Origin: TPA_inf: Saccharomyces
Taxonomy: Eukaryota
Reading direction: 5' to 3'
Length of the DNA stretch: 64,000 bases
NCBI GenBank assembly: GCA_000146045.2
Contig: BK006949.2
Location: forward strand, 128,001-192,000
Below, piece after piece: positions 43,156-43,483 of this stretch (within the stretch, counting starts at the first letter, position 1; every line of letters starts with the position of its first letter). The translations under genes and the position numbers were made by a program. The notes below the pieces were generated by a model. That model had not been told where the DNA came from and did no database searches. It saw nothing but the letters and a program-made list of their open reading frames with translations.

Positions 43156-43284
43156 GATTTCGTTATGATTATTTTCTTTCTTGAGGGTGTTTAGCAATAC
43201 ATTATTATCCTTGTGATTTCGCTTATACACATGTAGGATTTCCTCCTTATATATTACAAGTGTGTCACCATTTCCGGCCCACCA

Positions 43285-43294
43285 ATAGCCGCCG
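43285..43294 (+). promoter_or_regulatory. URS1 (Ume6 site) TAGCCGCCGA in the CSM4 promoter
   Basis: This is an exact match to the classic URS1 decamer. It lies about 190 bp upstream of the ATG of the meiosis-specific CSM4, in the annotated YIG1–CSM4 intergenic region. Confidence 0.55.
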
Positions 43295-43483
43295 ACCTCC
43301 AAATTACCCCAAATAAAAAAAAAGAAAACTCCGGAAATGCGGGGTTGAGCTGCAATATAATAATAATATGGCAACTTTAGCCGCGCAATCGAAGATACAG
43401 TAAATATAGTAAAAACGTGTCTGCAAATGGCTACTTTCGATCCTTCTTCCCAAAAGGCAATATTGCAGAAGAAGAACTAGAAA

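Follow-up and report, generated by a model that had tools for sequence, protein, structure and literature searches.

A conserved URS1 in the probable shared promoter of YIG1 and CSM4, and a non-coding open frame upstream of YIG1

In the window, by which we mean the whole 64-kb stretch of DNA that was analysed, the divergent genes YIG1 and CSM4 are separated by a short region that contains an exact URS1, the predicted binding site of Ume6, and the same region is spanned by a stop-free run in the reading frame of YIG1. The locus raises two questions, namely whether the region is a promoter or an N-terminal coding part of YIG1, and, if it is a promoter, which of the two genes is served by the URS1. 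The best explanation, to which we assign a probability of about 0.8, is a promoter shared by both genes that is centred on one evolutionarily fixed URS1, with the open YIG1 frame being non-coding. A sequence-only reading of this DNA, which our analysis followed up, had already argued for a promoter and had given the URS1 to CSM4 exclusively. All features with their positions in the window are collected in Table 1.

Table 1. Features at the YIG1–CSM4 locus, with positions counted in the window.
Feature	Position	Strand	Remarks
YIG1 (YPL201C) coding sequence	41770..43155	-	ORF, 461 aa; ATG at 43155..43153, MGIPM start
Divergent intergenic region, probable shared YIG1/CSM4 promoter	43156..43483	.	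328 bp between the start codons
Stop-free run in the YIG1 frame, 107 codons, no ATG, non-coding	43156..43476	-	TAG at 43479..43477
TATA box TATATAAG, about 92 bp upstream of the YIG1 ATG	43246..43253	-	TATAWAWR match
Nearly invariant island, 31 bp: CCAAT, URS1, CTCCAA, TTACCCCAA	43282..43312	.	seven-species alignment
Canonical URS1, predicted Ume6 site TAGCCGCCGA	43286..43295	+	exact 10/10 match; minus strand TCGGCGGCTA
A9 homopolymer, variable poly(dA:dT) promoter tract	43315..43323	.	FFFFIW in the YIG1 frame
GC box GCGGGG with AT-rich 5' flank	43339..43344	+	present in 7/7 species
Second invariant block TTTAGCCGCGC, URS1-like	43376..43386	+	98 bp upstream of the CSM4 ATG
CSM4 (YPL200W) coding sequence	43484..43954	+	ORF, 156 aa; ATG at 43484

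The identity of the two genes is clear from their products. In protein searches, the YIG1 product showed 75% identity to Yig1p of S. kudriavzevii and 72% to YPL201C of S. arboricola, and the CSM4 product matched Csm4p of S. cerevisiae at 99% and Csm4p of S. paradoxus at 74%. Searches with both proteins returned Saccharomyces proteins only, and homologues beyond this genus were not detected; according to a 2026 preprint, CSM4 is a paralogue of MPS2 that stems from the whole-genome duplication and is confined to this genus. The length of the intergenic region varies little, from 324 to 340 bp across seven Saccharomyces species, and 26% of the alignment columns are invariant.

For the comparison between species, the S. 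cerevisiae window was set beside the corresponding locus in each of six further Saccharomyces species. These were S. paradoxus (locus L001, recognised via its 74%-identical Csm4p), S. kudriavzevii, S. arboricola, S. uvarum, the S. eubayanus-type copy in S. pastorianus, and a species that is probably S. mikatae, whose locus was obtained by merging the genuine part of L004 with L008 over an identical overlap of 87 nt. Both L004 and L008 are chimeric contigs of an ENA "synthetic metagenome", in which unrelated yeast segments are fused via a Nextera adapter (CTGTCTCTTATACACATCT / AGATGTGTATAAGAGACAG); the junction lies some 270 bp upstream of YIG1 in L004 and at about 33..70 in L008. The idea that L004 represents a rearranged neighbourhood of YIG1 was rejected, as the contig is chimeric and the junction is the adapter. 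The loci L009–L011 repeat the S. uvarum sequence and were left out, as was L006, in which CSM4 is frameshifted. For the comparison within S. cerevisiae, we used 12 sequences, the window and 11 further strains.

We first consider the open frame. Upstream of the YIG1 ATG it extends over all 107 codons back to a TAG, and not over 73 codons as had been proposed in the sequence-only reading. The shorter length is what an ORF finder returns when it uses the bacterial code and a TTG start, and the codon at 43374..43372, which had been taken for an upstream ATG, is indeed a TTG. None of the 107 codons is an ATG, and an in-frame ATG upstream of the YIG1 start is absent from every species and strain compared, so that the supposed extension was never a credible annotation. 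A similar artefact is seen in P0001 (486 aa) and P0002 (489 aa), in which YIG1 starts some 25 codons too far upstream (window 43156..43230), at a triplet that reads GTG in the window; these early starts result from prokaryote-style gene callers that applied the bacterial code to eukaryotic DNA.

The frame could nevertheless represent a real N-terminal extension of Yig1 that begins at a near-cognate start, such as the TTG at 43374. A run of 107 codons is improbable by chance (P ~4e-4 by mononucleotide shuffling), it was matched by 0 of 5000 dinucleotide shuffles, and in S. paradoxus 72 codons stay open. However, with some 6000 genes, a probability of 4e-4 would give a couple of such chance cases per genome, and the comparative data stand against the extension. 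The number of open codons is 107 in S. cerevisiae, 72 in S. paradoxus, 8 in the probable S. mikatae, 10 in S. kudriavzevii, 30 in S. arboricola, 7 in S. uvarum, and 20 in the S. eubayanus-type copy, which means that five of the species reach a stop within 7–30 codons. The A tract, whose translation as FFFFIW had been described correctly, differs in length between species by numbers that are not multiples of three, and even S. paradoxus is therefore shifted in frame at this position relative to S. cerevisiae. Within S. cerevisiae the frame is polymorphic as well, being broken in six of the 11 other strains, where 74, 51, or 12 codons remain open. The breaks are due to an A9/A10 polymorphism (A9 in six and A10 in five of these strains), a 5-bp duplication, and a 1-bp insertion. 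The duplication, of TCCAA beside the URS1 (window position 43297), is carried by two of the five A10 strains (L014 and L019), and the sixth frame-broken strain, L017, has an A9 tract and the insertion of a T at 43176. A conserved TATA box and the conserved URS1 lie inside the supposed coding stretch. The MGIPM at the accepted start of YIG1 is retained in 7/7 species.

As an ATG is lacking and the frame is broken in relatives as well as by the A9/A10 polymorphism, the stretch is a promoter and not coding sequence, and the open frame arose by chance in the reference sequence. We regard a real extension as highly improbable. The earlier argument for a promoter is thus borne out by the unconserved frame without ATG, the conserved URS1, and the published description of the locus, and the frame-breaking indels that had been suggested as a sign of the short YIG1 are indeed found in relatives, in the A tract, together with the early stops. 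The short YIG1 start is the annotation that is already accepted.

The second component of the best explanation is the URS1 itself. The decamer reported by the sequence-only reading is present and exact, and only its position needed correction, as it lies one base to the right of 43285..43294. It fits the consensus WNGGCGGCWW, with the core GGCGGC at 43288..43293, and its distance is 131–140 bp to the ATG of YIG1 and 189–198 bp to that of CSM4. The block CCAATAGCCGCC (43282..43293) is invariant in 7/7 species and is the longest invariant block of the intergenic alignment. One of the species shows TAGCCGCCCA, a single change that leaves the GGCGGC core untouched, and the exact decamer is kept in all 12 S. 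cerevisiae sequences. The surrounding island contains three invariant blocks (43282–93, 43297–302, and 43304–12). It is scarcely conceivable that the match is a functionless GC-rich decamer that arose by chance, as might be argued from the bare core GGCGGC, which occurs seven times in the window at an expectation of 6.2, since the exact decamer occurs once where dinucleotide-preserving shuffles give 0.01 copies, since 12 nucleotides are invariant in seven species in a region of which 26% is invariant, and since Isw2-dependent nucleosome positioning at this locus has been published. The lack of enrichment of the core also implies that the signal resides in the full consensus TAGCCGCCGA.

We would like to emphasize that the site is not new. 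The consensus WNGGCGGCWW is the one by which the McKnight laboratory delimited 202 instances of the Ume6 motif between genes, and the same publication presents the YIG1–CSM4 site, with nucleosomes positioned by Isw2, as "an example Ume6 target site", a designation that is based on the motif and on the Isw2-dependent nucleosome positions (PMC8141940). Both the URS1 of this locus and its connection with Ume6 and Isw2 have thus been described before. In conclusion, we regard the URS1 as a genuine element that is strongly conserved and evolutionarily fixed, and that has already been published as a Ume6 target.

Some further observations concern the surroundings of the site. In the two strains with the TCCAA duplication, the distance from the URS1 to TTACCCCAA is altered by half a helical turn. 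Elsewhere in the window, two copies of the URS1 with one mismatch each are found on the minus strand, 237 bp apart: TAGCCGCTGA at 25304..25313, in the gap between the ORFs 23515..25161 (minus strand) and 25495..26040 (plus strand), and TAGCCGGCGA at 25541..25550, within the latter ORF.

Several other elements of the intergenic region are conserved. On the YIG1 side of the URS1, between this site and the YIG1 ATG, lies the TATA box, of which TTATATA at 43247..43253 is invariant in 7/7 species. Two invariant CYCCAA units directly adjoin the URS1 (43297..43312); they are the reverse complement of TTGGRG, which we take to be an Adr1-type half site. The GC box with its AT-rich flank presumably corresponds to a Mig1-type consensus. 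These tentative assignments to Adr1-like and Mig1-like motifs fit the published behaviour of YIG1, which is glucose-repressed (PMC3166949) and induced 8.6-fold upon a shift to glycerol (PMC2673449). The second invariant block, TTTAGCCGCGC, is unchanged in 7/7 species and 12/12 strains and occurs once in the window. It has TTTAGCCGC in common with the extended URS1, and its core is CGCGGC in place of GGCGGC; it also includes a CGCGC, as is present in Rsc3-type sites. An Ndt80-type MSE (CRCAAAW) was not found in the YIG1–CSM4 intergenic region. A Gal4-like CGG-N11-CCG at 43275..43291 was considered and dismissed, as its conservation is limited to three species. On the plus strand, an upstream ATG opens a uORF of 17 codons (43428..43479), whose TAG lies five bases before the CSM4 ATG. 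Its start codon at 43428 is retained only in S. paradoxus, and it would be relevant only if the CSM4 transcript began upstream of 43428.

With the region being a promoter and the URS1 being genuine, the question is which gene the site serves. CSM4 is a candidate, as its mRNA and protein are meiosis-specific (PMC2533704), and in stressed mitotic cells it is induced together with the classical URS1 genes REC8, SPO11, HOP2, MND1, and REC114 (PMC2423420). The sequence-only reading had predicted that CSM4 is repressed by Ume6, and this is at odds with one dataset: CSM4/YPL200W figures neither among the 177 genes with a response to the acute depletion of Ume6 nor among the 1267 genes that are differentially expressed in ume6Δ (Harris & Ünal, 2023; PMC10550318). 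The absence from both lists indicates that the loss of Ume6 alone causes no detectable derepression of CSM4 in vegetative SK1 cells. NDJ1, which encodes the partner of CSM4, ranks with the strongest targets of that dataset (PMC10550318). YIG1, on the other hand, is up in ume6Δ by a log2 value of 2.58 (about 6-fold, p 6.7e-21; tables of Harris & Ünal, 2023, PMC10550318). YIG1 is missing from the list of genes responding to acute Ume6 depletion, and genes that respond only in the null mutant comprise a mix of direct and indirect effects according to the same authors (PMC10550318). As the response of YIG1 is confined to the null mutant, it may be indirect. The supplements of Tresenrider 2021 have no entry for CSM4 or YIG1, and in the literature on CSM4 in connection with URS1, Ime1, or Rpd3 we found nothing on the CSM4 promoter. 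An assignment of the URS1 to CSM4 alone is plausible, but it is not secure and is partly contradicted by this one expression dataset. The exclusive claim for CSM4 finds no support here: YIG1 rises in ume6Δ, and the URS1 lies closer to the YIG1 ATG. Most likely, the URS1 serves a promoter that is shared by YIG1 and CSM4, with one Ume6 site acting in both directions.

The opposite assignment must also be weighed. The URS1 may functionally belong to YIG1, as a glucose-repressed metabolic Ume6 target like ACS1, CAT8, CRC1, and FOX2, and the meiotic control of CSM4 may come from elsewhere, for example from TTTAGCCGCGC. The expression tables, in which YIG1 rises in ume6Δ and CSM4 appears in no list, can be read in this way, and so can the distances, with the URS1 at 131 bp from the YIG1 ATG versus 189 bp from the CSM4 ATG. 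The site also adjoins conserved CYCCAA and GCGGGG motifs of the carbon-source type, YIG1 responds to glucose and glycerol, and CSM4 has a separate invariant element 98 bp from its ATG. Nevertheless, we consider this reading unlikely, as YIG1 does not respond to acute Ume6 depletion and its behaviour in the null mutant falls into the mixed class, and as CSM4 is strictly meiosis-specific without having an MSE. Moreover, the lack of CSM4 derepression upon the loss of Ume6 is still compatible with an activation by Ime1–Ume6. If, as a rather doubtful variant, the URS1 mainly tunes YIG1, then TTTAGCCGCGC could be a non-canonical Ume6 site or the site of another factor that controls CSM4. A control of CSM4 by TTTAGCCGCGC would explain why CSM4, unlike NDJ1, is not derepressed without Ume6 in vegetative cells.

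Returning to the shared promoter, its function can be envisaged on the basis of the general Ume6 model, which is an established mechanism and is also summarised in PMC10550318. In vegetative cells, Ume6 bound to the URS1 would recruit Sin3–Rpd3 and the Isw2 remodeller, and Isw2 would then slide nucleosomes over the YIG1–CSM4 promoter, where Isw2-dependent nucleosome positions have been published. Upon entry into meiosis, Ime1 would dock on the bound Ume6, and the URS1 would become an activating element, through which the meiosis-specific CSM4 may be switched on during prophase. As both genes have this promoter in common, the same URS1 probably also dampens the glucose-repressed YIG1, which would use its own conserved TATA box, with the Mig1/Adr1-like motifs located on the far side of the URS1, towards CSM4. 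One conserved URS1 lies in the probable promoter of a meiosis-specific and a glucose-repressed gene at the same time, and as YIG1 but not CSM4 changes in the published ume6Δ data, the locus would offer a compact test case for one Ume6 site that is read in both directions. Beyond housekeeping, the significance is small, since the site and the short YIG1 are already known.

A comparison with known systems helps to place the locus. Non-AUG N-terminal extensions exist in yeast, as in ALA1 and GRS1, and YIG1 resembles these genes in having a long stop-free in-frame stretch upstream of its ATG. Unlike in such genes, the frame of YIG1 lacks conservation, varies between strains of the species, and has promoter elements within it. 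The metabolic Ume6 targets CAR1, INO1, ACS1, CAT8, and FOX2 are the second comparison, as YIG1 is likewise metabolic, glucose-repressed, and up in ume6Δ, and as the YIG1–CSM4 URS1 sits amid motifs of the carbon-source type; the difference here is that YIG1 is missing from the acute-depletion list of direct targets. The early meiotic URS1 sites of SPO13, HOP1, IME2, and NDJ1 provide the third comparison. In contrast to NDJ1, SPO13, and HOP1, CSM4 is not among the genes derepressed by Ume6 depletion or deletion, and its URS1 is shared with a divergent non-meiotic gene. The likenesses are as follows: the site has the same consensus decamer with a GGCGGC core and a deep conservation, it likewise occupies a promoter position at 130–200 bp from the start codons, and CSM4 likewise is meiosis-specific, with a function in prophase alongside NDJ1, a strong target of Ume6. 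At the early meiotic sites, Ume6 represses with Sin3–Rpd3 and Isw2, and Ime1–Ume6 activates, and the YIG1–CSM4 locus likewise has published Isw2-positioned nucleosomes.
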